A stretch of DNA of 64,000 bases from an uncultured Eubacteriales bacterium (GCA_964435925.1 CAYTBG010000001.1:2331-66330); one strand, 5' to 3'; positions 38,631 through 61,200 are shown, counted from the first letter of the stretch. Numbers and translations are program-made. Notes: generated by a model not told the origin, from the letters alone.

Positions 38631-38964
38631 TGTAATGGCTTGATTCAGCCAAGCCCACCTTTTATGGGTATGGTTTCTCAAACCTGCTTTCTATTCAATC
38701 TTGTACGTGCTTGATTCACAAAGCACACCTTTTACTTCTTTTTGTAGGGGTTTGATTCATCAAACCCACCTTATTTCTTCTTGTAGGGGCTTGATTTATC
38801 AAGCCCACCTTATGTTTTTCTATGTAGGTACTTGATTTATCAAACCTACCTTTATGGGCTTTGTTTCTCAAACCACATTTCATTTCTTCTTGTAAGGGCT
38901 TGATTTATCAAGCCCACCTTATGTTTTTCTATGTAGATAACTTGATTCACCAAGCATACCTTTA
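38631..38964 (+). repeat. array of about 9 REP-like hairpin units filling the gcvT-gcvH spacer
   Basis: Units start at about 38631, 38664 (degenerate), 38701, 38743, 38782, 38823, 38855 (degenerate), 38891 and 38932. The consensus is tgtaggggcttgatttatcaagcccacctt. A higher-order duplication with a period of about 109 bp links 38776-38854 and 38885-38964. Confidence 0.85.
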
Positions 38965-38973
38965 TCGAATGGC

Positions 38974-40068
38974 TCAACTCTCCTCACCTTTTTTGTAAAA
39001 AGGAGTGGGAACCACTCGGGCTTTGATCTTTCTGTCCCTTATTCCAATCTCAAATTCTGTTCCTATCTCTTTATATTCAACGGGAAGATAGGTTAAACCT
39101 ATGCTCTTTTTCAAGTAAGGAGAAAAAGTGCCTGAATTTACCTCAGAGACTTTATTGCCTTCTATGAAAACTGGGTAATGCGGCCGGGCTATTCCCCTCT
39201 CTATGACCTCAAAACCAACTAATCTTCTAATGATTCCCTCTTCCTTCTGCTTTAGGAGAGCTTCCCTCCCTAAAAACTCTCCTTTTTTATATTTCACAAG
39301 CCAGCCCAAACCAGCTTCAAGCACTGTTGTAGTCTCATCTATATCATTTCCATAAAGCATGAGTCTTGCTTCCAGGCGAAGAGTATCTCGAGCGCCCAAC
39401 CCTATAGGAACAACACCCAAGTTTTTTCCTCTTTCTAAAATAACGTCCCAGATCTTTTCCGGCCGGGAAGAAAGAGTGTATACCTCAAAACCATCCTCTC
39501 CTGTATAGCCAGTGCGAGAGACAAGAACTTCCTCTTCCTCTATTTCTCCCCAACTCGATCCGAACAAATTCATCTCCTCTATATTAACATCAATCAAAGG
39601 CTTAAGAATTTCCAAAGCCCTGGGTCCCTGAAGAGCAAGCTGAGTATAGTCATCACTTTTGTTCTCAACCTCTACATCAAAACCTTCTTTATGACTGAGA
39701 ATCCATTCATAATCCTTATTAGAATTAGAACAGTTCACGACCAGCAGGTATTTCTCCTGCTCCAGGCAATAGACCAAAAGGTCATCAACAAAAGTCCCCT
39801 GCGGAGTGGTCAAGCAGGAGTACTGTGCTTTCTCAGGGGTTAGACGAGCAGCATCGTTGGGTGTCAAATACTGAACAAAATCAAGAGCCTGTCTTCCTGA
39901 AATTACAATTTCTCCCATATGACTCACATCAAAAAGTCCTGCCTTCCGGCGGACAGCCAGATGCTCATCAATAACTCCACTATACTCCACCGCCATCTCC
40001 CAGCCGAAAAATTCAATCATCTTGGCGCCAAGCTTTTTATGGGAAGAATTAAGGCGGGTTTTTTTCAA
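38974..40068 (-). CDS. gcvT: glycine cleavage system aminomethyltransferase T
   Basis: HKKLGAKMIEFFGWEMAVEYSG is the typical GcvT N-terminus. TTG start with gaggaaag upstream. Confidence 0.9.
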   Translation of the reverse strand: MKKTRLNSSHKKLGAKMIEFFGWEMAVEYSGVIDEHLAVRRKAGLFDVSHMGEIVISGRQALDFVQYLTPNDAARLTPEKAQYSCLTTPQGTFVDDLLVYCLEQEKYLLVVNCSNSNKDYEWILSHKEGFDVEVENKSDDYTQLALQGPRALEILKPLIDVNIEEMNLFGSSWGEIEEEEVLVSRTGYTGEDGFEVYTLSSRPEKIWDVILERGKNLGVVPIGLGARDTLRLEARLMLYGNDIDETTTVLEAGLGWLVKYKKGEFLGREALLKQKEEGIIRRLVGFEVIERGIARPHYPVFIEGNKVSEVNSGTFSPYLKKSIGLTYLPVEYKEIGTEFEIGIRDRKIKARVVPTPFYKKGEES

Positions 40069-40110
40069 AATCTTTCCTCTGCGAAATTAATTTACTAACA
40101 TATAACTTTT

Positions 40111-40198
40111 CCCGATGCAAGAAAAATCGTCAGAAGTCTTGTCCAAAAACACAAATCTGATATAATTAGAAACCAATCATGCTTGAATTTAAAAATTA
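40111..40198 (+). repeat. left copy of the 88-nt direct repeat (argS promoter plus first 7 codons)
   Basis: 40111-40198 matches 50957-51044 at 87 of 88 positions, with the single mismatch at 40148 a versus 50994 g. Weaker similarity continues for about 13 nt to the left. Confidence 0.9.
40139..40166 (+). promoter_or_regulatory. duplicated sigma70-type promoter (TTGTCC-16-TGaTATAAT) facing the GHKL ATPase gene
   Basis: TTGTCC at 40139-40144 and TATAAT at 40161-40166, with TG 1 nt upstream of the -10. It is identical to the argS promoter copy apart from one spacer base. Confidence 0.55.
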
Positions 40199-40211
40199 CC
40201 TAAATTTGTGA
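40179..40211 (+). pseudogene. argS 5' remnant (MLEFKNY + 3 codons, then stop)
   Basis: atg ctt gaa ttt aaa aat ta is identical to the argS start at 51025. It diverges after 40198 and ends at TGA 40209-40211. Confidence 0.6.
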
Positions 40212-40247
40212 GAGTTTAAATGATATTCTTTGGAACACGAAGAGAAT

Positions 40248-41723
40248 ATGGAAGTTAAAGAAAGGAAAGAATTAGAAGTCGCTGTCGATAAAAGACACAT
40301 TGTCTCTATCGGCGAACGCCTCTATACAGAAAGCGTAGAGCTTCTCAGAGAACTTGTCAACAATGCCTATGATGCTGACGCAACCAAAGTCCACGTAGAG
40401 ATCACTCCTGAAAGAATTGTAGTCAGAGATAATGGCTCAGGCATGGACGAAGAAGGTCTAAAACAATATTTTATCATCGGTTCTGAAGAGAAAGTCATTC
40501 ATTCTCGCTCTCCAAAATTCGGAAGAACTAGAATAGGACAGTTTGGTATCGGAAAATTTGCGTCATTATCTGCTGCTTCCTGTTTTGAGGTTATAACTCA
40601 ACATAAAAATTTTGCAGCGCGAGTCATTTTTGACAAAAAAGCCTGGAAGAAGGCAAAAGACAGGTGGCGTCTTCCGCTAGAAATTCTTGAGCCTGATCAT
40701 CAAAGAGCAAACGGCACAACTGTCATTCTTTCTGAACTTTCTAAATCATTTGCCTTTGAAGAAGTGGAAAAAAAATTAATAGAAGGGGTTCCACTTAAAG
40801 CCCCTGATTTTACAGTGTATTTAAATAATCGCCGGCTTTTACCAAGAAGCCTTGTTGGCCAAAGGATTCCCATCATGGAAGGCTGCAAATACGGGCTTGT
40901 CTCAGGAGAGATTGTCATCACTCCCAGCTCGATGGCTTTGTTAAAAGATTTGGGTATCGATGTAAAAGTAAAGGCAGTTACTATAAAAAGGGAACTCTTC
41001 GGAATGGAAACCTGGGGAAAAGTTGTAGCCAGAGTAAAAGGGGAAATTAACGCAGATTTTCTTCCTATAACCAGCGACCGTTCAAATTTCGTGATTGATT
41101 CAGATGAATATCAAGAATTCCTCAAAATTATGAAAAAGCTTGTAGATATTATCAAAAAAACTTTGGGAAAGGAAGCTGATAGGAGGGAAGACCGAAAAGC
41201 CAGCCGTGTAGTAAAAGAAGCTCTGCAAAGAATTCATAAATCATTAGCCCGAAACCCGGAATTATCACCGTTCGGTCCTATTCCTTACGGTGAAGAAGGA
41301 GGGATAGGAGGAGGTGCTGTGGCTGAAGGGGAAAAGAAAAAAGCTGAAGATGAATCTGAAATTAGACCGCAAAAAAAAGAGGCCAAACAGAAACCAAAAA
41401 CCAAAAGACGACATCATCCTCTGGTGAAAAAAATCACCCCTAATGCCATTGTGCGCAGGATGAGGATGGGAGATAGTAGCGTCTCTGTCTGCCTTGATTT
41501 TTTTGGGGAATCAGGGCCGGAGTGCTTTTCTGAAGGGAATGTTATTTACATCAACCGGGACCATCCTCTCTTCAAGAGAGAGTCAAAGAAAGCTGCTACC
41601 TATACCATGTACTTAGCACGCCTTTTAACACAAGAGATCTCTTTGATGAAAGAGACGCGAAGCCCCCGCCTTGCTTTCAGCCGCCAGAGTAAACTTCTCA
41701 AAGACGCCTTTGTAGAAGAATAA
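40248..41723 (+). CDS. GHKL-superfamily (HATPase_c_3 / MORC-like) ATP-binding protein
   Basis: N box ELVNNAYDADA, G1 box VRDNGSGMD, and G2 box IGQFGIGKFAS. The C-terminal half has a Lys/Glu-rich linker and an unassigned domain. The start is ATG 40248 or TTG 40230. Confidence 0.75.
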   Translation: MEVKERKELEVAVDKRHIVSIGERLYTESVELLRELVNNAYDADATKVHVEITPERIVVRDNGSGMDEEGLKQYFIIGSEEKVIHSRSPKFGRTRIGQFGIGKFASLSAASCFEVITQHKNFAARVIFDKKAWKKAKDRWRLPLEILEPDHQRANGTTVILSELSKSFAFEEVEKKLIEGVPLKAPDFTVYLNNRRLLPRSLVGQRIPIMEGCKYGLVSGEIVITPSSMALLKDLGIDVKVKAVTIKRELFGMETWGKVVARVKGEINADFLPITSDRSNFVIDSDEYQEFLKIMKKLVDIIKKTLGKEADRREDRKASRVVKEALQRIHKSLARNPELSPFGPIPYGEEGGIGGGAVAEGEKKKAEDESEIRPQKKEAKQKPKTKRRHHPLVKKITPNAIVRRMRMGDSSVSVCLDFFGESGPECFSEGNVIYINRDHPLFKRESKKAATYTMYLARLLTQEISLMKETRSPRLAFSRQSKLLKDAFVEE

Positions 41724-41737
41724 AAAGCAAAATAAAG

Positions 41738-42460
41738 CTAAAGCCTAAAAATCGTTGTATTATTTTTCAGCCAATCTTTTCGTTTTTGGTAATCTGGTAT
41801 TACAATAGAAACAAGCTTCCAAAAATCCGAGGAGTGATTTTTGATTTTTAAATGGCACAGCTCATGTACAACTATATAATCGGCGATGGAAACCGGAGCC
41901 ATTGAGATCCGCCAGTTAAACCTTAATGTGCTATCTTTCGAACAGCTTGCCCAACGCTTTTTCTGATCTTTTATTATTATCTTTTTAGGAAACAAATTCA
42001 GCAACTTACTATAGCGGTTAACCCTTTGTTTGATAATCTTTGTTGATTTTTCAAAATACCATTTTATCAAAGTATCTTTGATTATTTCTTTTCTGTCTTC
42101 GGGAGCTAAATTACTATGAACATATATGAATAATCTTCTTCCAGATAACTTCGGGATACTTAGATAATTTTCTTCCTTTATTTTTAACCGATATTTTCTA
42201 CCCAACAACAAAATTTGTTCTCCGCTTACAAGCTCTTTTTCTGGAAAGAGCATAGCCAATCTTTTGAAATGTTCTTGTTTTTCCAGAATCCACAGGGCCT
42301 TTTTTTTTACAATTGTCTTGATTTTTTCCCTGCTGAAATTATTTGGAGCCAACACAATAACCTGGGAAGCAAGAGTTACATTGATAGCCAGAGTTTTTTT
42401 GCGATTTCCCCTTTTAATAGTGTAGTCAATGCGTTTTGTGCCGAAATTAATATAATCCAT
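41738..42460 (-). CDS. DUF45/YgjP-like (M48/WLM-type) zinc metallopeptidase
   Basis: HExxH motif (VVHELCHLKIKNHSSDFW). It starts 1 nt after the hsdR stop. Confidence 0.75.
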   Translation of the reverse strand: MDYINFGTKRIDYTIKRGNRKKTLAINVTLASQVIVLAPNNFSREKIKTIVKKKALWILEKQEHFKRLAMLFPEKELVSGEQILLLGRKYRLKIKEENYLSIPKLSGRRLFIYVHSNLAPEDRKEIIKDTLIKWYFEKSTKIIKQRVNRYSKLLNLFPKKIIIKDQKKRWASCSKDSTLRFNWRISMAPVSIADYIVVHELCHLKIKNHSSDFWKLVSIVIPDYQKRKDWLKNNTTIFRL

Positions 42461-42461
42461 T

Positions 42462-45400
42462 CTAATCCTTAAATCTGGCTCTTGCTAATTCCAAGACTTC
42501 CCTAGTAAATAATTCCAGTTTGCGATCAGGAAAGTTAATTTTTCTCAAACGATTTTTGATATCTCTTCGCATTTCTTTCTGAATATCTTCTTTTTCTACC
42601 CAATCAATAACTCTCTTTCTTTTTATGATTTCAACAATGTCTCGGGTCAAAAGACATCTTTTCTCATCGTCCCCACTAAAAAGTTTATTACTATAGGGTT
42701 CCAATAATCCATAAAAAGCAAATTCATCCAGTGTGAATCCTTTTTCTTTAGCAATAGCTTCTTTTTTCACTTCTTGTTTTCCGAGTTCTACTAGATCTTT
42801 AAGCAATTCCGCCTCATCTTTACGCCTTTGGCTGTCTTCTTCAATAATTGCTTCAAGTTTCTCCTCCAGGGACTCGTAGAAATGCGGATCTTCCCCAACT
42901 TTGGAATGTATCGTTTCACGTATAGCCTGTTCAACATGGCTCGCCTTGGCTCTTGTACTTCCCTTAATATCCAGTTTTTCTTCAAAATCAGGCGCAGTGA
43001 TTTTTATAGGCTCCAAGATTTTTTCAATCCCTGTATCAACGATATGAGCATGTATGAGTTTCTCAACTTTCCGGCTGCAATTCTCAAGACTCAATCTCTC
43101 ATCACGATAAAGATTTCTTGCCCCTTCCCGGACCATCCCCAGAAATTTGAAATCACCAATAAACGGCTCAACACTGGGATCAGGAATGAGCATATCCATG
43201 CTCTTTGCAAATTCCCTGAATAACACTTCAAATCTAGACCTTACATCTTCAGGTTTAAGGATTTCGAGACACTTCTGGAGTATTTCTGCAGGATTGGCCT
43301 TCCGATCAACAGTTTTAAATAATTGCATGGCCTTTTGATGAGCATCCTGGAGGGATGAGATTTCCCTGTGCCAGTCATCCACGCTGAATAAACCGACGAG
43401 GTCTTCACTGTCAAAGATCGCCAAAGCTTTTACCAGCTCCTTTCCAACACCCACATAATCAACGACCAACCCAAAATGTTTCCTTGGATAAGGCCTGTTG
43501 GTCCTGGCAATGGCCTGAAGCAGCGTATGTTCTTTCAATCTCTGGTCAAGATACATAACCTGCTCAATTGGGACATCAAATCCTGTCAGCAATTTATCAC
43601 ATACTATAAGAAACTTAAGAGGATTCGATGGACTGAGAAAAACATCTTTTCCTGTAATCCGGTCTTCTTCCTGGGCTGTGCGGCGGTATTTATTCTTCCA
43701 TTCTTTAGGGTCATCGTTATTAACCGTCATGACAACTGTCGACCAGGAAGGATCGACAAACTTATCCATCGCTTTCTTATACATAACCGCTGTTTTCCGT
43801 CCTGAAGCAACAAGCTGGGCTTTGAGTCCATTGGGCTCAATTTTTTCCACATAATGATTCACGATATCTATTGCAATGCGCTCTATTCTCCGCGGAGCAC
43901 TTAAGATAGCATCTACTGTTGCGTACCGTCTTTTTATTTCAGCCAATTCCTTTGGAGTTTTTTCGGGAAAGAGCTCTTTGAGCAGCCTGTCAATCGAAGC
44001 TCCCACAACCTGAAGATTGGTCAGCCGGCTTTCATATTTAACCGGAACAGTAGCTTCATCCTCCAGTGACTGTCGCATATCATATCTGTCCAGATATTTT
44101 TTGCCTGGAGGACTGAAATGCCGGTAAGTGTTTCTGTCTCTTTTATCAAGCGGAGTTCCGGTAAAAGCAAAGAGACTTGCACTGGGAAACGCTTTTCTTA
44201 GGTTTAGAGCATAAAAGCCATACTGTGTTCTATGCGCCTCGTCTGTCAGAATGATTATGTTTTTAGCCTCGGATAAAGGTTTTGCAAGAGCCTTGCGGAA
44301 TTTTTGAACGGTCGTCATAACTGTAATTCCGATTTCGCTGCTCAACAGGTCGTAGAGTTCTAGATGGGGCATTTTCTCTGCCATAATCGGATTGGGGAAA
44401 TTGCAATTCCTGAAGGTTTCAGTAATCTGTCTGTTCAATTTCTTCCTGTCCGTAACAATAAGGATTATGGGATTCTTTAATTTTTCCTGCTCTCGCCTCA
44501 ATTTCACAACGGCAAAAAGCATGATCAGTGACTTGCCCGAACCCTGCCAGTGCCAGATAATTCCTCTTTTATCAGGTTCGCTTTTCACAGTTCTAACTAT
44601 TTTATTAACTGCGGAAAACTGCTGATAGCGGCAGACTTTTTTGACGATTCTATGCTCTTCTTTGCTGTAGTCAAAAACTATAAAATTCTGAATAATATCC
44701 AATAAATTTGGCTTTCTCAAAAGCCCTGCAATCAAGACCTCCTGCATCGGAGGATGGCCGCTGATATCTTTTTCATCAATCAACCCCAGCTTTAGCATTT
44801 CTTTAACTGAGGGATGTTCAGCCATGTTGGGAAACTTGCCATCACCCGGATCCTTCCATTCATGATATTGCTCTTCTGACACATCAATGCAACCGTATTT
44901 GGCTCCGAAGAGATTGCAGCCGATAAGAATCTCGTTAGTCCAAAAAAGCTGGGTGATTTCTTCCTGATAGCGGATAAGCTGCCTCTGCGCTTTTAGAACA
45001 CCGGTTTTTTTTGCGACCGGGCTTTTGCATTCGATGACGACAACAGGAAGGCCGTTAATAAAAATAACAATATCCGGACAATCTGTGGTTCTATGCTTTC
45101 TGACCCAGAATTGATTAACCGCTAAGAACTCGTTGTTCTCGATGTTTTCAAAATCTATAAAATTGACAGTTTGTTTTTGCCGTCTGGCACCGATGTCCTG
45201 ATCAATGGAAATACCGGAAATAAGGTAACTGTGAAAAATGCGGTTGGTCTCAAGCGTGCCTTCAGATTGAATATGTGTGACTCTCCTGACCGCTTTTGTT
45301 ATAGAATCCTCGGTAAGATGAGGATTAATTTTGGCCAACGACTTTTTGAGGCGTTCCTCTAAAATGACATCTCTTCGGGATTTTCGTTCGCAATCTTCTT

Positions 45401-45512
45401 TAAGATCAGGGTCTAGCTGGTCTCCATGTATATATTTATATCCAAGCCGCTTTAGCTGCTCGATGGCAGGCTTTTCTGATAAAGTATCTTCGTTAAATTT
45501 TTTTCCTGACAT
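42462..45512 (-). CDS. hsdR: type I restriction enzyme R subunit
   Basis: 1016 aa. Typical N-terminus (EKPAIEQLKRLGY), Walker A WQGSGKSL, DEAH box LTDEAHRTQ, and helicase C-terminal motifs (QAIARTNR). Confidence 0.9.
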   Translation of the reverse strand: MSGKKFNEDTLSEKPAIEQLKRLGYKYIHGDQLDPDLKEDCERKSRRDVILEERLKKSLAKINPHLTEDSITKAVRRVTHIQSEGTLETNRIFHSYLISGISIDQDIGARRQKQTVNFIDFENIENNEFLAVNQFWVRKHRTTDCPDIVIFINGLPVVVIECKSPVAKKTGVLKAQRQLIRYQEEITQLFWTNEILIGCNLFGAKYGCIDVSEEQYHEWKDPGDGKFPNMAEHPSVKEMLKLGLIDEKDISGHPPMQEVLIAGLLRKPNLLDIIQNFIVFDYSKEEHRIVKKVCRYQQFSAVNKIVRTVKSEPDKRGIIWHWQGSGKSLIMLFAVVKLRREQEKLKNPIILIVTDRKKLNRQITETFRNCNFPNPIMAEKMPHLELYDLLSSEIGITVMTTVQKFRKALAKPLSEAKNIIILTDEAHRTQYGFYALNLRKAFPSASLFAFTGTPLDKRDRNTYRHFSPPGKKYLDRYDMRQSLEDEATVPVKYESRLTNLQVVGASIDRLLKELFPEKTPKELAEIKRRYATVDAILSAPRRIERIAIDIVNHYVEKIEPNGLKAQLVASGRKTAVMYKKAMDKFVDPSWSTVVMTVNNDDPKEWKNKYRRTAQEEDRITGKDVFLSPSNPLKFLIVCDKLLTGFDVPIEQVMYLDQRLKEHTLLQAIARTNRPYPRKHFGLVVDYVGVGKELVKALAIFDSEDLVGLFSVDDWHREISSLQDAHQKAMQLFKTVDRKANPAEILQKCLEILKPEDVRSRFEVLFREFAKSMDMLIPDPSVEPFIGDFKFLGMVREGARNLYRDERLSLENCSRKVEKLIHAHIVDTGIEKILEPIKITAPDFEEKLDIKGSTRAKASHVEQAIRETIHSKVGEDPHFYESLEEKLEAIIEEDSQRRKDEAELLKDLVELGKQEVKKEAIAKEKGFTLDEFAFYGLLEPYSNKLFSGDDEKRCLLTRDIVEIIKRKRVIDWVEKEDIQKEMRRDIKNRLRKINFPDRKLELFTREVLELARARFKD

Positions 45513-45526
45513 TCAACCAGGCCCCT

Positions 45527-46771
45527 TTATATTTTTGCCCTAATTTTACCAGTTAACAAAACCTGCATCAATCCTTTCTTTATACCTTCTAATCTTTCTT
45601 TATTAGCTATTTCATTCTCTATTTCTTCATCCACCGATGTTAAAGCCTCTGCAATCTTTTTTTGTTCGTGAAGTGGAGGGAGTGGAACCTTTATACTTGA
45701 AAGAGATGATGCATTAACTCCCCCCTGGGCACTACCACCAATCTGTTCTTTTATTTGTCTCCAGTAAATAAAAGAATTAAAAACTAGGTAAAGAAAGTTA
45801 GAATTAATTCTTCCTTTTGTAACTACTCTAATAAGATAGGACGCAAAGACCGCTTCTGGGCACTTTTTTATAATGTAACTTTTTCCTGTAGTTGCACCTG
45901 TTCTTACAAATAAAATATCTCCTGGCTTAAGAACGTATTTTTCTTTTATTGAATTTGAACAATGACAAAATGGAACATTTTCCCAATTTACTTTTCCATC
46001 CTGAATATCTGATATTCGTAAAAATTTCGGGCCAATTGGCTTTTCAGTCGCACTTTCGGTATAACCATACTCAGGCTTTTCACAAACATCTTGGACTTTA
46101 ACAACCTCCCAATCCACAGGAATCTCACCAATTTCTGTCTTCTTGAATTTTTTATGTCCTATTCCGCGGGTAAACAATTCCTGCATCAGGCTTTTTTTCA
46201 ACTTCCTTGTTTTATCAATGATCTCTTGCTTTTTCTCAATTGCTTCATCCATCGATGTTAAAATTTCCGCAATCTTTTTCTGTTCTGAAATGATTGGAAA
46301 AGGAATTTTTAGCTTAAATAAATCTTTTTTATTTATTGCTTCAAAAGTGCTCCCTTGCCCGATTTTCACTAATGTGTCTTTAAAGTAATTCATTACAAAA
46401 TACAAATAATCATTATAAATTTTCGTTCCTCGCAGAGCTGCCAATCCTCTCCCTATACAACATTCTACAGGAGCAATGTTAATATCTCCCACAGGAGCCC
46501 GCACACTTACAAGAATATCTCCTTTTTCAGCTAGTTTCCTAGGAGAATTACACCATTTTAGAATTTTAGGAAACTTAGTTCCAAATTCTGCATTTCCCTG
46601 AAAAAAGGGAACGCCATTCATAAATTCAAAACAACTTTCAGACGGAGGTGATTGTCCCATAATCAATTGTGTAACTTCACCAAGATTTACAACTTCCCAA
46701 TCCACAGGAATTTCACCTATATCTGTTTTTTTTAATTTATTTTCAGTTCGTAAACTCTCTACTCGTCCCAT
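45527..46771 (-). CDS. hsdS: type I restriction enzyme S (specificity) subunit
   Basis: Two target-recognition domains, each preceded by TDIGEIPVDWEVV / TEIGEIPVDWEVV, and conserved coiled-coil spacers (EQKKIAEILTSMDEAIEKK / EQKKIAEALTSVDEEIE). Confidence 0.9.
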   Translation of the reverse strand: MGRVESLRTENKLKKTDIGEIPVDWEVVNLGEVTQLIMGQSPPSESCFEFMNGVPFFQGNAEFGTKFPKILKWCNSPRKLAEKGDILVSVRAPVGDINIAPVECCIGRGLAALRGTKIYNDYLYFVMNYFKDTLVKIGQGSTFEAINKKDLFKLKIPFPIISEQKKIAEILTSMDEAIEKKQEIIDKTRKLKKSLMQELFTRGIGHKKFKKTEIGEIPVDWEVVKVQDVCEKPEYGYTESATEKPIGPKFLRISDIQDGKVNWENVPFCHCSNSIKEKYVLKPGDILFVRTGATTGKSYIIKKCPEAVFASYLIRVVTKGRINSNFLYLVFNSFIYWRQIKEQIGGSAQGGVNASSLSSIKVPLPPLHEQKKIAEALTSVDEEIENEIANKERLEGIKKGLMQVLLTGKIRAKI

Positions 46772-46781
46772 TCTTCCCTCT

Positions 46782-47828
46782 TTATTCTCCTCCTCCGGTT
46801 CTTAACAATCTGGTAATGAAATTCTGAAATTCCTCTTCATACTTGTCTGGGCTAGTTTTTTCACCTGGAACAGCAGGCAAATCCAGACCGCTTTTTGAAA
46901 ATTCAATGCTTATGGTTTCCATGGCTTCGCGCAACTTAGAACTTCGCAAATAATCTGATATGACCTGTTCAACTTCATTCAGAACATCCCAAACATTATT
47001 CAATGCAGAAAATAGCGAAATCCAATCAAGCCATACAGGCAATTTTTGATCATCTAAATTCGCTCCTAAAAGAAACTCTCCCCACCTTTTTTGAGATAGC
47101 CAGTATTCGATTTTTCTCTTCCCTTTGATTCTTGTCAGCACCAACCCAGACTCTGCAAACTCAATCAAAGCATCCTGCACAGCCCTTAGAGAAATACCGA
47201 TTGCATCAGCCACCTCTGAAGGATGGCCGGCTTCATGAGTAAGGAGATAAAGGATGCATTCTGAACGGGAGCCTATCCCAAAAAGAGCCCTTAGCGAAAA
47301 ACGCATATTGCTTCTTGCTGCAACAGATACGGGTCTTGACATTTTTCGTAATGAAAAACTTTCCCGCAAAAATCCATACTCATGAAATGGTTCTGATATT
47401 TCTCCAGGTTTGGGGAAAGGTTCTTCTTCCCTAGTATTAAACAGCATTTCCTCTTTAACTCTTAAATCAGATGATTTCGATCTTGCTAATGCCTGCCATT
47501 TTCTCCTGTAAGACCTGGCCTCATGTGATAAAAAATGTGCCACTGCACTCATCAGACGTCGTGTTTTCTCATTTTTACTTTTGACTATCCCCCGAAGTCT
47601 CTGAATATCTATCCATTTGCCATTAACCACCATCCAATCCAGAACCTCATCAAAAAGCCGAGGCTCATATCTACTCATTTCAATCGAGAATAGGAGAAGA
47701 GCTTCAGGATCTATAACCCATTCGTCCTCAGATCTTGCACCTCCGGCAACACCCAGAGAAGACCACTGTCGCCAAAGAAAATTTAAAATGTTCTCCAGGA
47801 AAAAATGCTTAAATTCTTTCTGCGACAT
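46782..47828 (-). CDS. hypothetical 348-aa protein with a central winged-HTH-like segment
   Basis: ECILYLLTHEAGHPSEVADAIGISLRAVQDALIEFAESGLVLTRIKGKRKIEYWL looks like an ArsR/MarR-type wHTH, and the flanking regions are unassigned. The start overlaps the upstream NTase gene by 20 nt. Confidence 0.6.
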   Translation of the reverse strand: MSQKEFKHFFLENILNFLWRQWSSLGVAGGARSEDEWVIDPEALLLFSIEMSRYEPRLFDEVLDWMVVNGKWIDIQRLRGIVKSKNEKTRRLMSAVAHFLSHEARSYRRKWQALARSKSSDLRVKEEMLFNTREEEPFPKPGEISEPFHEYGFLRESFSLRKMSRPVSVAARSNMRFSLRALFGIGSRSECILYLLTHEAGHPSEVADAIGISLRAVQDALIEFAESGLVLTRIKGKRKIEYWLSQKRWGEFLLGANLDDQKLPVWLDWISLFSALNNVWDVLNEVEQVISDYLRSSKLREAMETISIEFSKSGLDLPAVPGEKTSPDKYEEEFQNFITRLLRTGGGE

Positions 47829-48411
47829 CTTTGTATCCTATTTTTTTCAGAAAATCCTTGAGGACTTTTTTATACGTATCCGAAGGATCATGGGTTATAG
47901 TCCAGCGTGCTGCATCTTCCGTTTCTTGTGCTGTGGGTCGTAAGGTCATCAAGTCGTCAAAATGGACATCAGGCCGGCCTCGATCAACGGCTGCAAAGAG
48001 CTTAAAATGAATCTGATCATAGCGACTCAGAAAATGAATGATAAGGCTTCTTCCATAAGTACGAGTCTCTACTCTTTTCATAAGACCTTCGGGCAGGCCA
48101 AAATCCAAAACTGATGCAGGGCCTGTGTTAAGCCAATTCTCCGGTAGATTAAAGTCTCTCTGCACTCTTTTGGCTGCGGCCGTAATCGCGGGGTTTAGAG
48201 GGCTTTCTTTTGCTAAAAATGCCGTGCCATCTCTATTCCTCTCAACAAACGCGACAACATCTACGTCTTTAGTTGTGCGTTGGACATAGCCAATTATGTT
48301 CAAAGCAGCACCTCCACAAACAACCATTTCAATTCGTCCTGCTCTCTCTGCATCTAGCTGTTCGGAAAGTGCCATTAGGACAGCTTCAATATCTTTTTTT
48401 CCTTTAAACAT
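47809..48411 (-). CDS. pol-beta-superfamily nucleotidyltransferase-fold protein (AbiEii-like N-terminal motif)
   Basis: VVCGGAALNIIGYVQRTTKDVDVV matches the GG-x(n)-R-x-T-x-D-x-D NTase signature. 200 aa. It starts 2 nt after the hsdM stop. Confidence 0.6.
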   Translation of the reverse strand: MFKGKKDIEAVLMALSEQLDAERAGRIEMVVCGGAALNIIGYVQRTTKDVDVVAFVERNRDGTAFLAKESPLNPAITAAAKRVQRDFNLPENWLNTGPASVLDFGLPEGLMKRVETRTYGRSLIIHFLSRYDQIHFKLFAAVDRGRPDVHFDDLMTLRPTAQETEDAARWTITHDPSDTYKKVLKDFLKKIGYKDVAERI

Positions 48412-48413
48412 GT

Positions 48414-49901
48414 TTATACCTTATAATTCAACTCTCTCAAGTAATTAAAAACTTTATCCTCTGCTTTCTTGAATCCTTTCTTTAACTCACTCAATTCATT
48501 TATTGTTTTCTGGATGTCGATTTTCTCTTCTTCTTCTGCAGTATCAATATAGCGGGTTATATTAAGATTGAAGTCATTTTCTTGAATTTCACTTACAGGA
48601 ACAGGACGACAATATTTCTCAGTGGTTTTGTATTCCCTGAATGCTGAGACAATATTTTCAATATCTTCATCCCGTAATCTATTCTGCTTCTTTCCCTCCA
48701 GATACTCATTCGCTCCATATAGAAAAAACACTCTTCCTTTTCTTTCTTTGGGCTTATTTTTATTCAAGATGAACAAACAGGCTGGAATACCTGTCCCATA
48801 AAACAATTTAGGCGGCAACCCTATAACAGCTTCAAGCAAATCTTCTCCGATTATCCCTATTCTTATTTTCTCTTCTGCTCCTCCGCGGAATAATGCACCA
48901 TGCGGCAGAACAACCCCGACTTTTCCCTTTGGATGGATGGTTGCAAGCATGTGCTGGACAAAGGCATAATCGGCATACCCTTTCGGGGGAATGCCGAATC
49001 GGAATCTTTTATAAGGGTCATTCTGGGCCTTCTCATATCCCCAATTCTTTAAGGAGAAGGGCGGATTGGCGATGACAACATCAAATTGCATCAATTGTCC
49101 ATGAGACAGCAATTGGGGATCCCGTAAAGTATCGCATCTTTTGATCTGGGCGTTTTTTAAGCCATGAAGGAGCAGATTCATCTTACAAATTGCCCATGTT
49201 CCTACATTTATTTCATGTCCATAAAGCGAAACATTTTTAGGATTCTGTTTGTTTTCTTTCAAATGCTGAACAGATTGGATCAACATTCCGCCTGAGCCGC
49301 AGGCTGGATCACAGATTCTCATCCCCTCTTGTGGATCTAAAATTTTGACTAACAACTCAACAACTTCTTTTGGCGTATAAAACTCTCCCCCTTTTTTCCC
49401 GGCACTTGAAGCGAATTGAGCTATTAGATATTCATAGGCATCACCCAAGATATCCGGTTTTTCCAAATCAGCATTACCCAACCTGATTTTAGAAAAGTGA
49501 TTGACCAATTGAGAAAGAATATGATCAGGCAGGCGATCTTTATCATTAAAATCAACTGCAGATAGGACTCCTTCTAAACTTTCCGGATTTTCTTCTTCCA
49601 ATAAATCGTTGGCCTTGTTAATAGCCTGACCGATATCATGTGTTAATGATTTGAGACGATCCCAGCTAGCTTTTTCAGGGACAAAAAACTCGTGATAATC
49701 CCGATCTTCGTATGCAATCTTTTTATCGCCGGTTTCTCTTACTATTTTCTCCGCTTCCTCTTTAAAAACATCGGATATTCTCTTCAAGAAAAGAAAGCCA
49801 AAAATATAATTTTTATAGTCTGCTGCATCAATATGGCCTCTTAAAATATCAGCAGATTTCCAAAGGTGAGTTTTCAATACTTCCAGATTAATTTTTTCCA
49901 T
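48414..49901 (-). CDS. hsdM: type I restriction-modification N6-adenine DNA methyltransferase subunit
   Basis: HsdM N-terminal domain (LWKSADILRG), SAM motif DPACGSGGML, and catalytic NPPF (VIANPPFS). Confidence 0.9.
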   Translation of the reverse strand: MEKINLEVLKTHLWKSADILRGHIDAADYKNYIFGFLFLKRISDVFKEEAEKIVRETGDKKIAYEDRDYHEFFVPEKASWDRLKSLTHDIGQAINKANDLLEEENPESLEGVLSAVDFNDKDRLPDHILSQLVNHFSKIRLGNADLEKPDILGDAYEYLIAQFASSAGKKGGEFYTPKEVVELLVKILDPQEGMRICDPACGSGGMLIQSVQHLKENKQNPKNVSLYGHEINVGTWAICKMNLLLHGLKNAQIKRCDTLRDPQLLSHGQLMQFDVVIANPPFSLKNWGYEKAQNDPYKRFRFGIPPKGYADYAFVQHMLATIHPKGKVGVVLPHGALFRGGAEEKIRIGIIGEDLLEAVIGLPPKLFYGTGIPACLFILNKNKPKERKGRVFFLYGANEYLEGKKQNRLRDEDIENIVSAFREYKTTEKYCRPVPVSEIQENDFNLNITRYIDTAEEEEKIDIQKTINELSELKKGFKKAEDKVFNYLRELNYKV

Positions 49902-49953
49902 ATTTTCTGCCTTTTTGTAAAATATTCAACCTATTTATTAATTTCTGAAGGAA

Positions 49954-49982
49954 AATATACAAAAAACGGATATAAATGTCAA
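49954..49982 (-). promoter_or_regulatory. candidate promoter of the hsdM operon (TTGACA-17-TATATT on the minus strand)
   Basis: The minus strand reads attattgacatttatatccgttttttgtatatt. The -35 is at 49982-49977 and the -10 at 49959-49954, about 50 nt upstream of the hsdM ATG. Confidence 0.45.
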
Positions 49983-50050
49983 TAATTATATTTAATATTA
50001 TAGTTTATCTACAATTATTGTGAAGTTAAACTACATTTATTATTGAAATC

Positions 50051-50812
50051 TTATATTCCAAATAAGCCTTCGCTTTTTAAGCTAATATGACCATGAGTAT
50101 AAATTATAATGTGATCTAGTGGAGTAATGTCAACGGCTTTGCATGCTGAAATAAGCCTCTTGGTTATATCAATATCAAACTGGCTTGGTTTTCTGCTTCC
50201 AGAGGGATGATTATGTACAAAAATGACGGCACTCGCATCTTTATTTATTGCACCTTTTATTACTTCTCTAGGATAGATGGAAGCCTGGTCCACAGTACCT
50301 TTGGCGATAGTTTCGACTTCCAAGACTTTATTGGCTTTGTCTAAATAAACGACCTTGAAAAACTCTTCTTTTAGATCTCTCATAGATAAAGAAAGATAAT
50401 CCAGAATATCCTTATCATTTTCCATATATTCTTTCCCTATTATTTCTTCTTTAAGCTGACGTTTGGCAATTTCTATAGCAGCTAAAAGCTGAGCTATTTT
50501 TGCACTGCCTAAGCCATTAATTTTCTCAAGCTCTGATTTATTAGCACTCAGCAATCCTCTCAGCCCTCCAAATTGCTTAATCAGGCCTCTGGCTAAAGAC
50601 ACTGCATCTTTTCCTCTTGTACCGGACCGCAATAAAATAGCAATCAACCCGGCATCAGAAACATAATCAGATCCCTTCTCTAAAAGTAATTCTCTCGGCC
50701 GTTCATATTTCGGCCAAAATTTTATAGAACTCTTTACTTTCTTCTTTTCAGTCGTCACTATTATCTCTTCAAGAATGACGCCAAAAGATAAATAAATTCT
50801 CTTGGGTTTCAA
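50051..50812 (-). CDS. radC: RadC-family (JAB/MPN domain) protein
   Basis: YERPRELLLEKG N-terminal motif, HhH region (LEKINGLGSAKIAQL), and the JAMM-like HNHPSG motif. Confidence 0.85.
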   Translation of the reverse strand: MKPKRIYLSFGVILEEIIVTTEKKKVKSSIKFWPKYERPRELLLEKGSDYVSDAGLIAILLRSGTRGKDAVSLARGLIKQFGGLRGLLSANKSELEKINGLGSAKIAQLLAAIEIAKRQLKEEIIGKEYMENDKDILDYLSLSMRDLKEEFFKVVYLDKANKVLEVETIAKGTVDQASIYPREVIKGAINKDASAVIFVHNHPSGSRKPSQFDIDITKRLISACKAVDITPLDHIIIYTHGHISLKSEGLFGI

Positions 50813-50956
50813 ACAACTCTATTTTTAGGTTCAATATGTTCTACACGTCCAGATCATTCATATGCAATTCTAAATTTATAAAATTTTTGGCGCCACTCTC
50901 AGCCAAACACTTATAGAAAATAGTTTTTTACTTAGTGCCATTTAATTATAATTTCC

Positions 50957-51044
50957 CCCGATGCAAGAAAAATCGTCAGAAGTCTTGTCCAAAGACACAA
51001 ATCTGATATAATTAGAAACCAATCATGCTTGAATTTAAAAATTA
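50957..51044 (+). repeat. right copy of the 88-nt direct repeat
   Basis: See 40111-40198. It includes the argS promoter, ATG 51025 and codons 1-7. Confidence 0.9.
50985..51012 (+). promoter_or_regulatory. argS promoter (TTGTCC-16-TGaTATAAT), implying a very short leader
   Basis: TTGTCC at 50985-50990 and TATAAT at 51007-51012. The ATG lies 13 nt after the -10 and no SD is visible. Confidence 0.55.
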
Positions 51045-52962
51045 TTTAAAAGAAAAAATTCACAAACTGCTGAAAGAAAAATACCATCTTGATCTTTCAG
51101 AGCTTGAAATAAGCTATACTCCACAGCAAAAAATGGGTGACTTGGCCCTGACCTTCCCTTTCCAACTGGCTAAAAAAATGAAAAAAGAGCCAAGAAAGCT
51201 CGCCCTGGAAATAATTCCCCTTCTTTCTCCTCTTGAAGGAGTGGAAAAAATCGAAGCAGCAGGGCCAGGCTATATCAACCTTTTCCTGGAGCGAGAAAAA
51301 TTCTTTTCCAGCCTACTTCACTCAATAGGGCAAACATCTCTCTCACCCGAGGAAGAAAAGATCATAATCGAGCACACCAACATCAACCCCAATAAAGCAG
51401 CCCACATAGGCCATCTAAGGAATGCCTGTCTCGGCGATACCCTGGGGCACTGTCTTAAATACAAAGGAGAAAACGTCGAAATTCAAAATTACATAGACGA
51501 CACTGGAGTCCAGGTGGCAGATGTTGTCTTCGGCTTCATGGAGCTTGAGAAAAAGAGCTTGTCCCAGATCAAAAAAATAAAGGAAAAATTTGATTATTAC
51601 TGCTGGAATCTTTATGTACGCGTCTCTTCTTATCTAGATAATAATCCCCAAGCAGAGGCAAGAAAATCTGAAATCCTTAAAAAAATAGAGGAAGGTAAAA
51701 ATCCTGAACACGAGACAGCCCATTATATCTCCCGCCGAATAATAAAAGCCCATCTCCAGACCATGGGAAGAATCGGAATCGGCTATGACCTTCTCCCCTG
51801 CGAAAGCAGCATACTCCATCTTAAATTCTGGGAAAAAGCTTTCTCGCTCTTGAAGGAAAAAAAGGCTATTTCCTTCGTAAAGAGCGGGGAAAACAAAGGC
51901 TGTTGGGTGATGTACCTTGAAGACGAATCAGAAAAGGAAAAGATCATAGTCCGCTCTGACGGGACAGTAACCTATGTCGGGAAGGATATTGCCTATCAGC
52001 TCTGGAAATTCGGTCTTCTGGAAGAAGATTTTTATTATGAACCCTTTATCAAAGAGGATAGCAAGATTGTCTGGATAAGTACTACAACGCCAGAGAAGGA
52101 ATCTCCTTCATTCGGAAAAGGAAGTCAGGTCTATAATGTTATAGATACAAGACAGGCCTATCTCCAGAAAATTGTCGTTCAAGGTCTCAAATCTCTGAAA
52201 TTCCCCGCTCAAGCAAAAAAATCCATCCATTTCTCTTACGAAATGGTTGCCCTTTCTTCAAAAAGCCTGAAAGAGCTTAATCTGAGTGTTTCGAAAGGAG
52301 AAAAGGAAAAGGACTTCCTTGAAGTCTCCGGGAGAAAAGGGCTGGGTGTGAAAGCCGATGATCTGCTGGACAGACTGGAAGAAAAGGCTTTAGCTGAGGT
52401 GGAGAAAAGAAATCCAGAGCTTTCGGAAAACCTGAAAGAAGATACAGCTCACAAGATAGCCAGCGGGGCGCTCCGCTACTTCATGCTCAAATTCGCCCTA
52501 AATTCTCTCATCGTTTTTGACTTCGAAGAAGCCCTTAGTTTTGAGGGAGAAACAGGCCCTTATCTTCAGTACACGTTGGTCAGGATCAACAGCATCTTCC
52601 GCAAGCTGAAGGAAATAGAAAGCTTTGAGGAGAAGGATCTCCAGACCCTTCTCTCTTCAGAGAGGATTCCGTTGGAAAAGCTTTCTGAATCAGAGCAGGC
52701 TGATTTCTGGAATCTAGTTCGCTATGCTTCCCAGTTTGAAGAAGAGGTTCTCCATTCTATCCGTTCTCTGGAATTCTCGCATTTAGCTAAGTTCTCTTTT
52801 AATCTATGTCAGAAGTTTAACGCTTATTACCACCTTTATTCTATCTTGGCTGAAGAGAATAAAGAGATAAAACGCATTCGTATCTTAACCATCTATTACA
52901 TCAGAGAAGTGCTCAAGCGCGCTCTTTCTCTCATGGGCATCCCGCAACCAGAATTGATGTAA
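51025..52962 (+). CDS. argS: arginine--tRNA ligase
   Basis: Class I HIGH motif (NPNKAAHIGHLRN), ArgRS-type N-terminal additional domain, and a C-terminal DALR-like anticodon-binding region. Confidence 0.9.
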   Translation: MLEFKNYLKEKIHKLLKEKYHLDLSELEISYTPQQKMGDLALTFPFQLAKKMKKEPRKLALEIIPLLSPLEGVEKIEAAGPGYINLFLEREKFFSSLLHSIGQTSLSPEEEKIIIEHTNINPNKAAHIGHLRNACLGDTLGHCLKYKGENVEIQNYIDDTGVQVADVVFGFMELEKKSLSQIKKIKEKFDYYCWNLYVRVSSYLDNNPQAEARKSEILKKIEEGKNPEHETAHYISRRIIKAHLQTMGRIGIGYDLLPCESSILHLKFWEKAFSLLKEKKAISFVKSGENKGCWVMYLEDESEKEKIIVRSDGTVTYVGKDIAYQLWKFGLLEEDFYYEPFIKEDSKIVWISTTTPEKESPSFGKGSQVYNVIDTRQAYLQKIVVQGLKSLKFPAQAKKSIHFSYEMVALSSKSLKELNLSVSKGEKEKDFLEVSGRKGLGVKADDLLDRLEEKALAEVEKRNPELSENLKEDTAHKIASGALRYFMLKFALNSLIVFDFEEALSFEGETGPYLQYTLVRINSIFRKLKEIESFEEKDLQTLLSSERIPLEKLSESEQADFWNLVRYASQFEEEVLHSIRSLEFSHLAKFSFNLCQKFNAYYHLYSILAEENKEIKRIRILTIYYIREVLKRALSLMGIPQPELM

Positions 52963-52993: not shown

Positions 52994-53096
52994 TGTAGGA
53001 GCTTGATTTATCAAGCCCACCGTTTTTATTTTGTTGGGTCATGACTCATCAAACCCATATTTTGGTTCTGTAGGGGCTTGATTTATCAAGCCCACA
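52994..53096 (+). repeat. REP-like hairpin repeats, 3 copies (52994-53022, 53034-53060, 53069-53096)
   Basis: tgtaggagcttgatttatcaagcccacc, ttgggtcatgactcatcaaacccatat and tgtaggggcttgatttatcaagcccac. Confidence 0.8.
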
Positions 53097-58292: not shown

Positions 58293-61200
58293 ATGTCAAT
58301 ACGTCGTTTATCTTTCTTTTTATTGGTTGCTGTCTCATTTTTATTAGCAACCGGTATGCCAACAACATCATCTTCAAATGGCGACCCAACTCAAAGTTAT
58401 GGATTAATCGTCGGACGAAATGTGAACATGGTTTCAGGCACACAAGCGCCTCACGGCGATCCATACCTTCAACGCCAGAATGAGCCTTCGGTTGCTGTCT
58501 CCACTCGAAATCCGATGCATCTCCTCGCCGGTGCAAACGACTACCGCACGATCGATGTGCCTTATCAGGATGTTCTACCTGGGATGGAAGAAAACTTAGC
58601 GCAAATACGCGATGCCTGGGTGGGTGTATTCAAATCGTTCAACGGGGGTGAATCCTGGATAAGCACTCTTCTTCCAGGATATCCACAGGACACTTCTCCT
58701 GAAGGAACATCGTCACCTCTATACGGATACGATTTCGCCTGTGATCCGACCGTTCGCGCAGGAGCCAACGGCCTTTTCTATTACAGTGGTATCGCTGCCG
58801 ATAGAGCAGAGCGAGGAGCTGGAGTTGTCTTTGTTGCTCGATATATCGATAACAATAACAGTGAATTCCTGGATACAATAGAATACGTCGATACAAATAT
58901 CCCCGATCAAGGAAACTCGGGACAATTCATAGATATGCCGTATATAGCCGTTGATGTACCAAGAGACAGTGGCACGGTTACAATTAAAGGACAAGAAATT
59001 CCTGTAAGCAATGTTTATATCGCTTACAGCCTCTTTCCTGGGCATTCGAAAAAAAACGTTCGTAGTAAAATACTTTTTGCTAGGTCAACCGATTGTGGTA
59101 CCACCTGGAGCAAGCCCATCAAATTGAGCGAAAGCCAGCATATCCTTCAACGACCGACAATCGCCATTGATCCGAGTGATCCCACAGGCAACACAATTTA
59201 TGTCGCCTTCCGGCGGTTTGCTAAGGCGAATAAAAAAGGGAAGATAAATCAGCCCCATGCAATCATTATCCTCAAATCCACTGATAGAGGCCGAAAATTC
59301 ACTAAAGCCATTGAGGTTACTTCTTTCTATCCCTTCGATCAGGGATCATCCAACTTTTCCTTCCGCACAAACGCCTATCCATCTTTAACCGTTGACGGCA
59401 ATGGAATTGTCTATTTAGCCTGGGCACAAAGGATGAATGGACCAGAAGGATTTGCACGGCTTGTTATCGCAGCTTCTGAGGATGGATTAGACTGGCCTAC
59501 AGGGCAAATGAAATATGTCGAGCTTGACCATGCAGAAGAAGAGGTTAAAGGTCATCAGTTTATGCCCTCTTTAACCTACGCAGGTGGCAAGTTGATGCTG
59601 GCCTGGTATGACCAGCGTCATGATATTGCTCAGGATTATATTGGAGATCAAGCTTTTACTCCTTACATTGAAGACTCTCTTTGTCGCCATACGATCGACG
59701 TTCGCGTCGCTTATGGCACGCTAGGTCTGTATCCCTCATTTAGCCCCTCGAGACAGGTTTCTCGATACCTCTATACATTGTATGTAGACGAATACGGCAA
59801 CCCAATTGAAGATGGGGAAGGCAATTGGATAATCGACCAAGCTGAGTTTAATCCAATCAATTTCCCACTCTTCCAGCAGGGCACAACACCTTTCAGTGGT
59901 GACTGGATGGATGCTGCACCCTCTCCCTGGATTTTGCCTTCATCGAACGGACAATGGTCCTTTAATACAAGCCCGCTTCAGCCAACAACATCTCTAATGG
60001 TCTGGACTGATAACCGGGATGTGAATCCTCCTGGGGGTTTCTGGTGGGGAAATTGGCAAAATTATCCGGAGTGGCCCCTATACAACGCACCAAATTCTGA
60101 CGAAACTCCTCCGCGAGAACCTTGTTCGAATGATCTCAATACAGGAATGCGCAACCAGAATATCTATACTGCCAACATCAGCGATGGATTAATCGTCGGC
60201 TCACCCCAGAACACAAAGCAACTCGGCGTCCCATTCATTCAGCGTACGTTTGTCGTGTACGCAAATAACACAACTGCAGAGGAAAGATATTTTCAATTCA
60301 GGATCAATGAGCTTGGATCCGCAACTGCTTCTTTCGAACAAGAACTATATTCAAATGATCATAAGTTGAATGTGACGATTGCACCCTTATCATCCGCTTC
60401 TGTTACGGTCTTCGTTGATCCATATACTGGGGAAAATTCTACTGCCATCAGGATCGATGTTGTCGAAATGGATGTGTCAGGACCTTCTCCAGTTCCCGTT
60501 CCAGGTGGTCTTTATGGCTATGTTTTATTAAATCCTGATCCCACAAATCCTGGTGTAATCGATTATTCTGACCCCAATAATCCCGAATATTTAGGTGATG
60601 AATACCATAATCCCCGGGTTTGGGGTCCTCGCGTTTGGGGTTATGACCTTGGAAATGCAAGCGAGCTCAACCCTCGCGTCCAAGGACCCCGCGTTCAGGG
60701 TTTTTCCCCTATCAACACAGGTTTTATCAACCCGCGCGTCCAGGGCGAAGATCCTCTCAACCCACGTGTCCAAGGTCCTCGAGTCTGGGGTCCCCGCGTC
60801 CAAGGCCCCCGCGTGCAAGGTATCAACATCCTAAACCAGGGTATTATTAATCCCCGTGTACAAGGCCCCCGCGTTCAGGGCACAGCTCTAACTGACGTCA
60901 CCTATCCTATAGTGAATGACGGCAACACCACCTCAGCTTACAGTATCAATGTCCGCTCACTTTTCGCCAAAGATTTTGATGAAGGAAAATTAATAGCCCA
61001 GCTTCTCATCTATAAGGTCCACACTTCCCCTGTTTCTGATGGTTGTGAGCTGAAACAGGTACACTATGATAAACTCGTCGCTAACATATACAATCCCCGC
61101 GTCCAAGGCCCCCGCGTTCAGGGTAGCGCCCCAACAAGCAGAGCAACAAGCCAGAGTGTTGGGGATTGGCAAATCCCAGAGCCTACGATCTACCTAGAGC

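Follow-up and report, generated by a model that had tools for sequence, protein, structure and literature searches.

Direct repeats around a restriction-modification island at the start of argS in Candidatus Aminicenantes: a possible insertion-duplication without an integrase

Introduction

How does a block of foreign DNA come to lie between two near-identical copies of the start of an essential gene, when no enzyme that could have placed it there is in sight? The question is raised by a 64,000-nucleotide (nt) stretch of DNA, here called the window, from an assembly named for an uncultured Eubacteriales bacterium (GCA_964435925.1, CAYTBG010000001.1:2331-66330), in which an island of about 10.8 kb with a type I restriction-modification (R-M) system separates the divergent core genes gcvT and argS and is bounded by direct repeats of 88 nt, each holding the argS promoter and the first seven codons of that gene. 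An original prediction, made from the sequence alone, read the repeats as the attL/attR pair of a site-specific integration event and added that, for want of an integrase, the island might be decayed, mobilised in trans or acquired by another mechanism. In this article, I will argue that the last of these options is the one favoured by the evidence, and I lean towards a homology-driven insertion-duplication at a recurrent insertion spot, with spread of the island by homologous recombination and without an integrase.

The locus would then be a natural example of foreign DNA settling within a 110-nt divergent promoter region beside an essential gene without a dedicated recombinase, one duplicated promoter and start keeping argS alive and the other being captured to express a defence gene. 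It would also provide a tractable case, in an uncultured phylum, of island transfer by homologous recombination, repeat-mediated loss and gene conversion between short repeats, and a warning that flanking direct repeats are not always attL/attR. The biology of the cargo (type I R-M, a GHKL ATPase, a YgjP-like peptidase, toxin-antitoxin-like genes, hsdS swapping and decay in individual strains) is ordinary; what is of modest interest is the integrase-less insertion-duplication at the start of an essential gene, the fact that at least two species have kept it with copies that evolve in concert, and the promoter capture.

The repeat pair and the empty site

The left repeat copy (40111-40198, plus strand) and the right one (50957-51044, plus strand) are identical at 87 of 88 positions, as first reported, the sole mismatch being A at 40148 against G at 50994, and a repeat search lengthens the pair to 104 nt at 94% (40101-40204 and 50947-51050). 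Each copy contains TTGTCC-16-TATAAT with TG before the -10 box, that is TTGTCC-16-TGnTATAAT (40139-40166 and 50985-51012), an ATG (40179 and 51025) and the codons MLEFKNY. The right copy, with the presumed working promoter, runs into argS, the arginyl-tRNA synthetase gene (51025-52962, plus strand, assigned by Pfam), and the left copy runs into a truncated argS start, a remnant open reading frame (ORF) of 10 codons (40179-40211, plus strand) that reads MLEFKNYLNL and stops at TGA 40209-40211. The left core flank is gcvT, encoding an aminomethyltransferase (38974-40068, minus strand; Pfam GCV_T, 4e-91) with a TTG start and a GAGGA ribosome-binding site, and the wider flanks are gcvPB-gcvPA-gcvH-gcvT on the left and argS with an ABC transporter on the right. 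No tRNA gene, tmRNA or Rfam match was found in the window. Also, no duplication was detected into the 5' end of gcvT or further upstream of the right copy, shuffled sequences equalling the score in 185 of 500 and 93 of 500 cases, respectively, and a consensus scan for a gcvT promoter in the left part of the repeat gave a minus-strand TTGCAT with no acceptable -10 box.

A trivial origin of such a pair, whether by assembly error, as members of a dispersed repeat family or as a transposon target-site duplication, is hardly credible. Short contigs (L004, L087 and L097) do break inside the repeat, a sign that assemblers are confused by it, but the same structure, with both copies spanned, is seen in no fewer than four independent assemblies, namely the window, L094, L085 and L086. 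A dispersed repeat family, which the original prediction had itself named as a possible refutation, is rejected, since the 37-nt repeat core (up to 3 mismatches allowed) occurs at only 2 sites in the window where 0 are expected from 100 shuffles. Neither a transposase nor terminal inverted repeats were found at the island, and a repeat of 88-139 nt far exceeds the target duplications known for transposons.

An ArgS-based scan with one genome per species returned 80 loci, nearly all of them from metagenome-assembled genomes (MAGs) that are titled Candidatus Aminicenantes or bear a vague or different title, for instance 'uncultured Eubacteriales', and the host of the window is a Candidatus Aminicenantes bacterium. 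Divergent gcvT lies upstream of argS in 69 of these 80 species loci, and the spacer between the two genes measures at most 130 nt in 31 loci and 131-520 nt in 29. In the four closest island-free species (L005, L007, L008 and L009, with ArgS 88-94% identical) it is exactly 110 nt and colinear with one repeat copy that leads directly into argS, the L005 site being almost identical to the repeat; in the window, the left copy sits 110 nt from the gcvT start, which is the ancestral spacing, and is colinear with these four sites. The empty sites that the original prediction had proposed to look for in relatives thus exist, and from them it follows that the 10.8 kb are an insertion into a compact divergent promoter region that duplicated the argS promoter and 5' end and left argS with both intact.

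Furthermore, the gcvT/argS spacer is a general insertion spot. Unrelated cargo occupies it in other species, including genes for a GT2 glycosyltransferase, a DegT aminotransferase and a methyltransferase (L049, L058 and L083), an M49 peptidase (L026) and unknown genes (L082 and L046), and inserts of about 87 and about 250 nt lie within the promoter region in L011 and L013; conserved core flanks, variable occupancy and cargo, and the absence of mobile-element hallmark genes together give the locus the features of a hotspot. A Lake Pavin MAG (L067) carries a 2.2-kb insert, with a 7TM-PAS sensor gene and an HD-GYP fragment, between the two copies of a 365-nt direct duplication at 96% that covers -72 to +293 of argS (7364-7728 and 9929-10288, the left copy being frameshifted). 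Since this duplication also takes in the argS start, with another length and other cargo, it argues against a fixed att site, with the caution that L067 is a MAG scaffold with an inner 217-nt direct repeat and with both argS copies lacking an internal segment, and that it may be a genuine second case or owe something to misassembly.

A probable single founding duplication

The island is present in the JGI metagenomes 3300008516, 3300008517, 3300028837 and 3300009499, in samples whose contig names begin with Ga0307379, Ga0307380 or Ga0209986, and in ENA ERZ27249619. Contigs with an identical ArgS (L001-L003) all carry it, and a second, distant species has it between gcvT and argS as well, represented by L010 (a Black Sea MAG), L085 and L086, the latter two being about 98% identical to L010 and all three having ArgS 80-82% identical to that of the window. 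In this species the repeat is 131 nt long at 99.2% identity (or 139 nt at 97%), extending to argS codon 21, and a remnant ORF of 21 codons in L085 takes the position that the 10-codon remnant has in the window. A third lineage, L174, shares this left junction, which is preceded there by argS-like codons, KEKIYERLK, and followed by the GHKL gene (89% identical), YgjP and the beginning of one further gene. Past the 88-nt repeat, the window continues (40199-40244) with a degenerate homologue of the distal stretch of L085's longer left copy, with a local alignment score of 30 against 13.7 +/- 2.5 for shuffled sequences, none of 500 shuffles reaching 30. The decayed distal part of the original duplication (40199-40229, plus strand; argS codons ~8-19) has lost 8 nt in an A-run and ends ...AAATGA directly before TATTC; it resembles the argS codons of the L085/L174 type, and its match to the window's own argS is not significant. 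At the junction itself, ...AAAAAA is followed by TATTCTTT in L085 and ...AAATGA by TATTCTTT in the window, and the same left junction recurs in L174 and in L094-L096. The block of repeat identity varies, from 88-104 nt here to 131-139 nt in L085, the shorter form being the longer one in decay. Because the left junction is homologous in all three lineages, I conclude from these alignments that one insertion-duplication event, covering argS from about -70 to +53..+65, probably lies at the origin and was later inherited and spread.

As to how that founding event may have come about, it would have duplicated a contiguous segment of about 125-140 nt, made up of the argS promoter and the first 18-21 codons, and left foreign DNA between the copies. 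Circular DNA carrying the target fragment could have joined the chromosome by a single Campbell-type crossover, an event that, whether catalysed by RecA or by an integrase, yields target fragment, insert and target fragment in that order. The topology fits, the duplicate lying in direct orientation with a truncated upstream copy and a downstream copy that runs into intact argS. Laboratory plasmid integration of the Campbell type has the same layout, with an upstream promoter and truncated gene, the insert, and a downstream intact gene; unlike it, the case described here is natural, old and fixed in at least two species, the fragment is about 130 nt, and the circular donor is hypothetical. A literature search for natural insertion-duplication islands gave nothing specific, and one for argS as an integration site gave nothing relevant, the term being confounded with 'ARGs', the resistance genes.

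Is the repeat an attachment site?

Site-specific integration, with attL and attR as the repeats, an integrase that was lost or acted in trans, and a mobilisable or decayed integrative element as the island, is in my judgement unlikely to be the answer, although several observations speak for it. Direct repeats sit exactly at the borders of the island, and the empty site corresponds to a single copy; in addition, a distant species has this island in the same place, and between the two the R-M genes have diverged less than core genes. There is also precedent for integration into a 5' end with provision of a new promoter, namely SXT in prfC and the dusA elements (PMC8409611; PMC2791158), so that the earlier description of the target type as unusual was overstated.

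The SXT/R391 integrative and conjugative elements in prfC and the dusA-specific elements target 5' ends and restore the gene, using a dedicated tyrosine integrase and a directionality factor to recombine near-identical attP and attB sites, and the replacement 5' end reported for the dusA element diverges from the native one, with 61% identity over 35 residues (PMC2791158; PMC8409611). The island shares with them the insertion into the 5' end of a conserved gene, the supply of a promoter and N-terminal codons, and direct repeats at both junctions; unlike them, it has no recombinase, its copies are near-identical host sequence over 88-131 nt, and its junction has been passed down across species and was not formed anew in every lineage. 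The resemblance is in outcome only. Nor does the repeat look like the conserved core and arm sites of an attachment site: its identity block of 88-139 nt has no fixed length, differs between lineages and decays from one end, its two copies evolve in concert, and unrelated insertions, together with the independent 365-nt duplication, have entered the same spacer.

The absence of integrases, excisionases and transposases that had been noted at the outset holds up under wider searching. Searches of the eight island proteins against Pfam, PADLOC, NCBIfam and PHROGs gave no excisionase, integrase, resolvase or transposase; for the islands of L001-L003 and L085-L086 with their ~10-kb flanks, no family of integrases, resolvases or transposases is among the listed precomputed Pfam hits; and no recombinase was found among 30 further ORFs of the window, all of them housekeeping. 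The island versions of both fully recovered species thus have neither a recombinase nor a directionality factor. That a recombinase is hidden in the 348-residue protein of the R-M operon was considered and rejected, since its AlphaFold2 model is a confident all-alpha winged helix-turn-helix structure whose best PDB fold match has E = 0.49.

Contig L097 (10,969 nt) might seem to provide the excised form, as it consists of the island with 93-nt identical ends (1-93 and 10877-10969), just what is expected of a circle. It starts with the last 99 nt of the 131-nt repeat and ends 6 nt short of the repeat end, and this is compatible with a circular form and, equally well, with the outcome of a de Bruijn assembler that collapsed the 131-nt repeat.

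A bolder version holds that the 88-131-nt repeat is a true attachment site. The island would then be a mobilisable defence element with no integrase of its own, carried from one Aminicenantes species to another either by a recombinase whose gene lies elsewhere or through some activity of its own that has gone unrecognised. One candidate for the latter would be the C-terminal half of the GHKL protein (residues ~225-475), which is highly conserved with many invariant columns, has no family match and is modelled by AlphaFold2 with pLDDT <50. I regard this as a long shot; if true, it would describe a mobilisable island whose target is the 5' end of an essential aminoacyl-tRNA synthetase gene.

Descent, exchange and loss

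The ArgS and GcvT trees are ladder-like, (L010/L085,(L009,(L008,(L007,(L005,window species))))), and on such a tree pure vertical descent requires four precise losses. Synonymous divergence (dS) between the window and L085 is 0.98 for gcvT, 1.09 for gcvPB, 1.31 for gcvPA, 1.75 for gcvH and 2.28 for argS among the core genes, and within the island 0.41 for hsdM, 0.48 for the 348-residue protein gene, 0.51 for DUF6036, 0.56 for hsdR, 0.61 for YgjP, 0.63 for hsdS, 0.70 for radC and 0.98 for GHKL. The proportion of synonymous differences (pS) is 0.55-0.71 for the core genes and 0.32-0.46 from YgjP to radC, and a sliding window of identity against L085 gives 85-92% from hsdR to hsdM and 74-81% in the flanks. 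The lower divergence of the R-M part relative to the core suggests that it was exchanged between species after their split.

Against this stands a purely vertical history, in which the ancestor shared by the window species and the L010/L085 species underwent one insertion-duplication, L005, L007, L008 and L009 each lost the island, and the low divergence of the R-M genes reflects later cassette exchange or stronger constraint. The shared left junction agrees with it, as does the GHKL dS, which equals that of gcvT; deletion between direct repeats of 88-131 nt is easy and would restore the 110-nt site exactly; and within the window's species, island and flanks have diverged together (95-98% versus 94-95%). 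What makes me doubt it is the need for four independent precise losses, together with pS values of 0.32-0.40 for hsdR, hsdM, the 348-residue protein gene and DUF6036 that fall short of the core range by over 4 standard errors (estimated by me from synonymous-site counts), and a left remnant in the window that resembles argS of the L085/L174 type and not that of its own clade; a purely vertical history is accordingly improbable.

In the homology-driven history that I favour, the island would have moved between Aminicenantes species into the same site by way of the conserved repeat and flanks. Homologous recombination through these sequences seems the most economical route of transfer because there is no recombinase and because the promoter segment is the best-conserved stretch of the region. 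Similarly, the most economical return to a 110-nt site appears to be deletion, the island being lost by recombination between the repeats.

The two copies also seem to be corrected against each other. Within each species they are 97-99% alike, about 9 of the 88 positions distinguish the window from L085 (a count by eye), and at these positions both copies of each species share one state. At argS codon 4, both copies in the window read TTT (40190 and 51036), while TTC is found in both copies of L094 and L095, in L096 and in all empty sites; a derived T in both copies of one strain lineage points to gene conversion between them. Past 88-98 nt an indel breaks the homology and the left copy decays beyond it, so gene conversion would keep the first 88-98 nt of the copies alike and leave the distal remnant to degenerate.

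The interior of the island turns over, by hsdS swap, hsdR deletion and deletion of the whole operon, and variants of each kind are seen among contigs of the same species (about 96% nucleotide identity) that differ by strain. L094 has the entire island with an hsdS (6677-7939) only 42% identical, that is, swapped; L171 has hsdR deleted (~2205-2217); and L095 has lost, at its positions 2873-3104, the R-M operon (window 41751-49973) and most of radC (window 50205-50911) and has kept GHKL and both repeats.

Why the promoter would be duplicated

The -10 box of argS ends 12 nt 5' of the ATG and there is no Shine-Dalgarno sequence (51007-51027; 40161-40181), and as read from the sequence the argS mRNA is probably near-leaderless. 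With the -10 box so close and no Shine-Dalgarno sequence, promoter and start codon would be inseparable, which would explain why viable insertions here duplicate both: to separate them would kill an essential gene. A GATGCAAGAAAAATC box upstream of argS is conserved across many Aminicenantes species.

After the insertion, the right copy would drive argS and the left copy would transcribe the 10-codon remnant ORF and then the GHKL gene. Homologues of GHKL at other loci have promoter-like sequences of their own, whereas here the ATG follows the junction after only 34-45 nt, so that no promoter is visible for GHKL other than the argS promoter of the left copy. Two strong sigma-70-like promoter matches belong to the hsdM operon itself and lie 5' of hsdM (49954-50024, minus strand), TTCACA-16-TATAAT and TTGACA-17-TATATT, each matching the consensus at 11 of 12 positions, these being matches to consensus only.

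Several points weigh against the insertion-duplication history as a whole. The founding duplication is a reconstruction, its circular donor and intermediate are hypothetical, and a recombinase encoded elsewhere in the genome could have acted in trans, a case for which a 64-kb window and MAG contigs leave room. No empty site was found in the window's own species, the nearest being L005 at about 94% nucleotide identity; in a look-up with exact proteins, ArgS led only to three island-bearing contigs and GcvT only to a contig of 1.2 kb whose end falls 30 nt inside the repeat. Few sites underlie the gene-conversion argument, namely one clean shared derived base and the pattern between species, and dS approaches saturation at values near or above 1. 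GHKL has diverged like the core genes and unlike the R-M operon, which suggests either a longer residence of this gene at the site or a mosaic island, part of which could have been inherited vertically. Finally, promoter activity and the near-leaderless reading are both drawn from matches to consensus.

Relation to other defence hotspots

Defence hotspots flanked by core genes and devoid of mobile-element genes, such as cDHS1 of Pseudomonas aeruginosa, have been described, and for hotspots of this kind transfer by homologous recombination via the flanks was proposed, in agreement with the route favoured here (PMC10250203). The gcvT/argS locus is like these in having defence genes between core genes, variable occupancy and cargo, and no integrase or transposase genes. 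It is unlike them in its long direct duplication of the promoter and 5' coding end of one flank, in its site, a 110-nt divergent promoter region, in the small size of the island, with one R-M system and accessory genes, and in the non-defence cargo that the same spot takes up in other species.

The island genes

Between the repeat copies lie eight genes, the same accessory set as first listed, with the core genes gcvT and argS outside, and to judge from these genes the island is a defence island with a complete type I R-M system and without mobility genes. All three type I subunits are present at full length by Pfam and PADLOC: hsdR, the restriction subunit (42462-45512, minus strand; Pfam HSDR_N, SWI2_SNF2 and T1RH-like_C; PADLOC REase_I, 1e-157), hsdS, the specificity subunit with two target-recognition domains (45527-46771, minus strand; Pfam Methylase_S twice; PADLOC Specificity_I, 5e-76), and hsdM, the methyltransferase (48414-49901, minus strand; Pfam N6_Mtase, 2e-111, and HsdM_N; PADLOC MTase_I, 7e-165). 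The final gene of this minus-strand operon encodes a YgjP-like (DUF45) metallopeptidase (41738-42460, minus strand; Pfam, 1.8e-57), and the right-end gene of the island is radC, with a JAB domain and a UPF0758 N-terminal domain (50051-50812, minus strand; Pfam; NCBIfam NF000642, 238 bits).

Two further genes lie between hsdS and hsdM. The first encodes the unknown all-alpha protein of 348 residues with a winged helix-turn-helix at ~175-245 (46782-47828, minus strand), which has no sequence match in Pfam, NCBIfam or PDB and more than 1500 homologues named HTH or MarR regulators by their sources; its AlphaFold2 model (pLDDT 82, pTM 0.83) has local resemblance to winged helix-turn-helix regulators only. 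The second encodes a DUF6036 nucleotidyltransferase-like protein (47809-48411, minus strand; Pfam DUF6036, 2.5e-7), and I infer that the two form a toxin-antitoxin-like pair within the R-M operon.

The leftmost gene encodes the GHKL ATPase, which is MutL/paraMORC-like (40245-41723, plus strand; Pfam HATPase_c_3, 5e-20; NCBIfam N-terminal region of BbrUII/HgiDII restriction enzymes, 7e-29) and has more than 2000 homologues in many neighbourhoods. GHKL ATPases that adjoin R-M genes are known from comparative genomics (PMC2292703), and MORC and paraMORC GHKL ATPases have been linked to R-M systems (PMC2292703; PMC8011034). The present protein agrees with these in its N-terminal GHKL ATPase beside R-M genes and in the wide and patchy distribution of its family, its placement in paraMORC being putative; unlike them, its gene is convergent with the type I operon and not inside it.

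Members of the GHKL family that are 62-98% identical border variable regions at no fewer than three different core sites, 3' of 5S rRNA in L088-L093 and L098-L102 and 3' of PGM_PMM and NTP_transferase genes in L176, L117-L122, L165 and L173, often with YgjP and unrelated type I R-M genes behind them (hsdR only 29% identical). A highly conserved GHKL gene beside variable cargo could act as a homology anchor for cassette exchange. In L152, inverted repeats of 208 nt at 97% (8801-9006 and 20515-20722) enclose 11.5 kb that include a GHKL homologue, possibly as an element that is composite or can invert. A direct duplication of 1062 nt at 89% takes in the 3' portion of a GHKL homologue in L108 (803-1845 and 3431-4486) and L109 (2620-3662 and 5248-6303).

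Composition and other repeats

The k-mer comparison of the island with its flanks that had been suggested was carried out and gave no foreign signal: the tetranucleotide profile of the island lies within about 1 standard deviation of the rest of the window, with a G+C content of 0.38-0.40 versus 0.41-0.44. Foreign composition was therefore set aside as a mark of the island, being not diagnostic, and a composition near that of the window is what exchange among relatives is expected to give. The strongest tetranucleotide outlier in the window, at a distance of 0.028-0.032 versus a mean of 0.014, contains a 1901-residue ORF that runs off the window's end (58293-63998).

Beside the left flank, a palindromic family that resembles repetitive extragenic palindromes (GGGCTTGATTYATCAAGCCC) fills the gcvH-gcvT spacer (38631-38965) with about 8 units at a period of 39-41 nt. 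Further copies of GGGCTTGATTYATCAAGCCC lie in the intergenic spacers at 3321-3405 and 52999-53093; 7 sites are counted in the window versus 0.01 expected, and the palindrome is also found in related contigs, for example L095.

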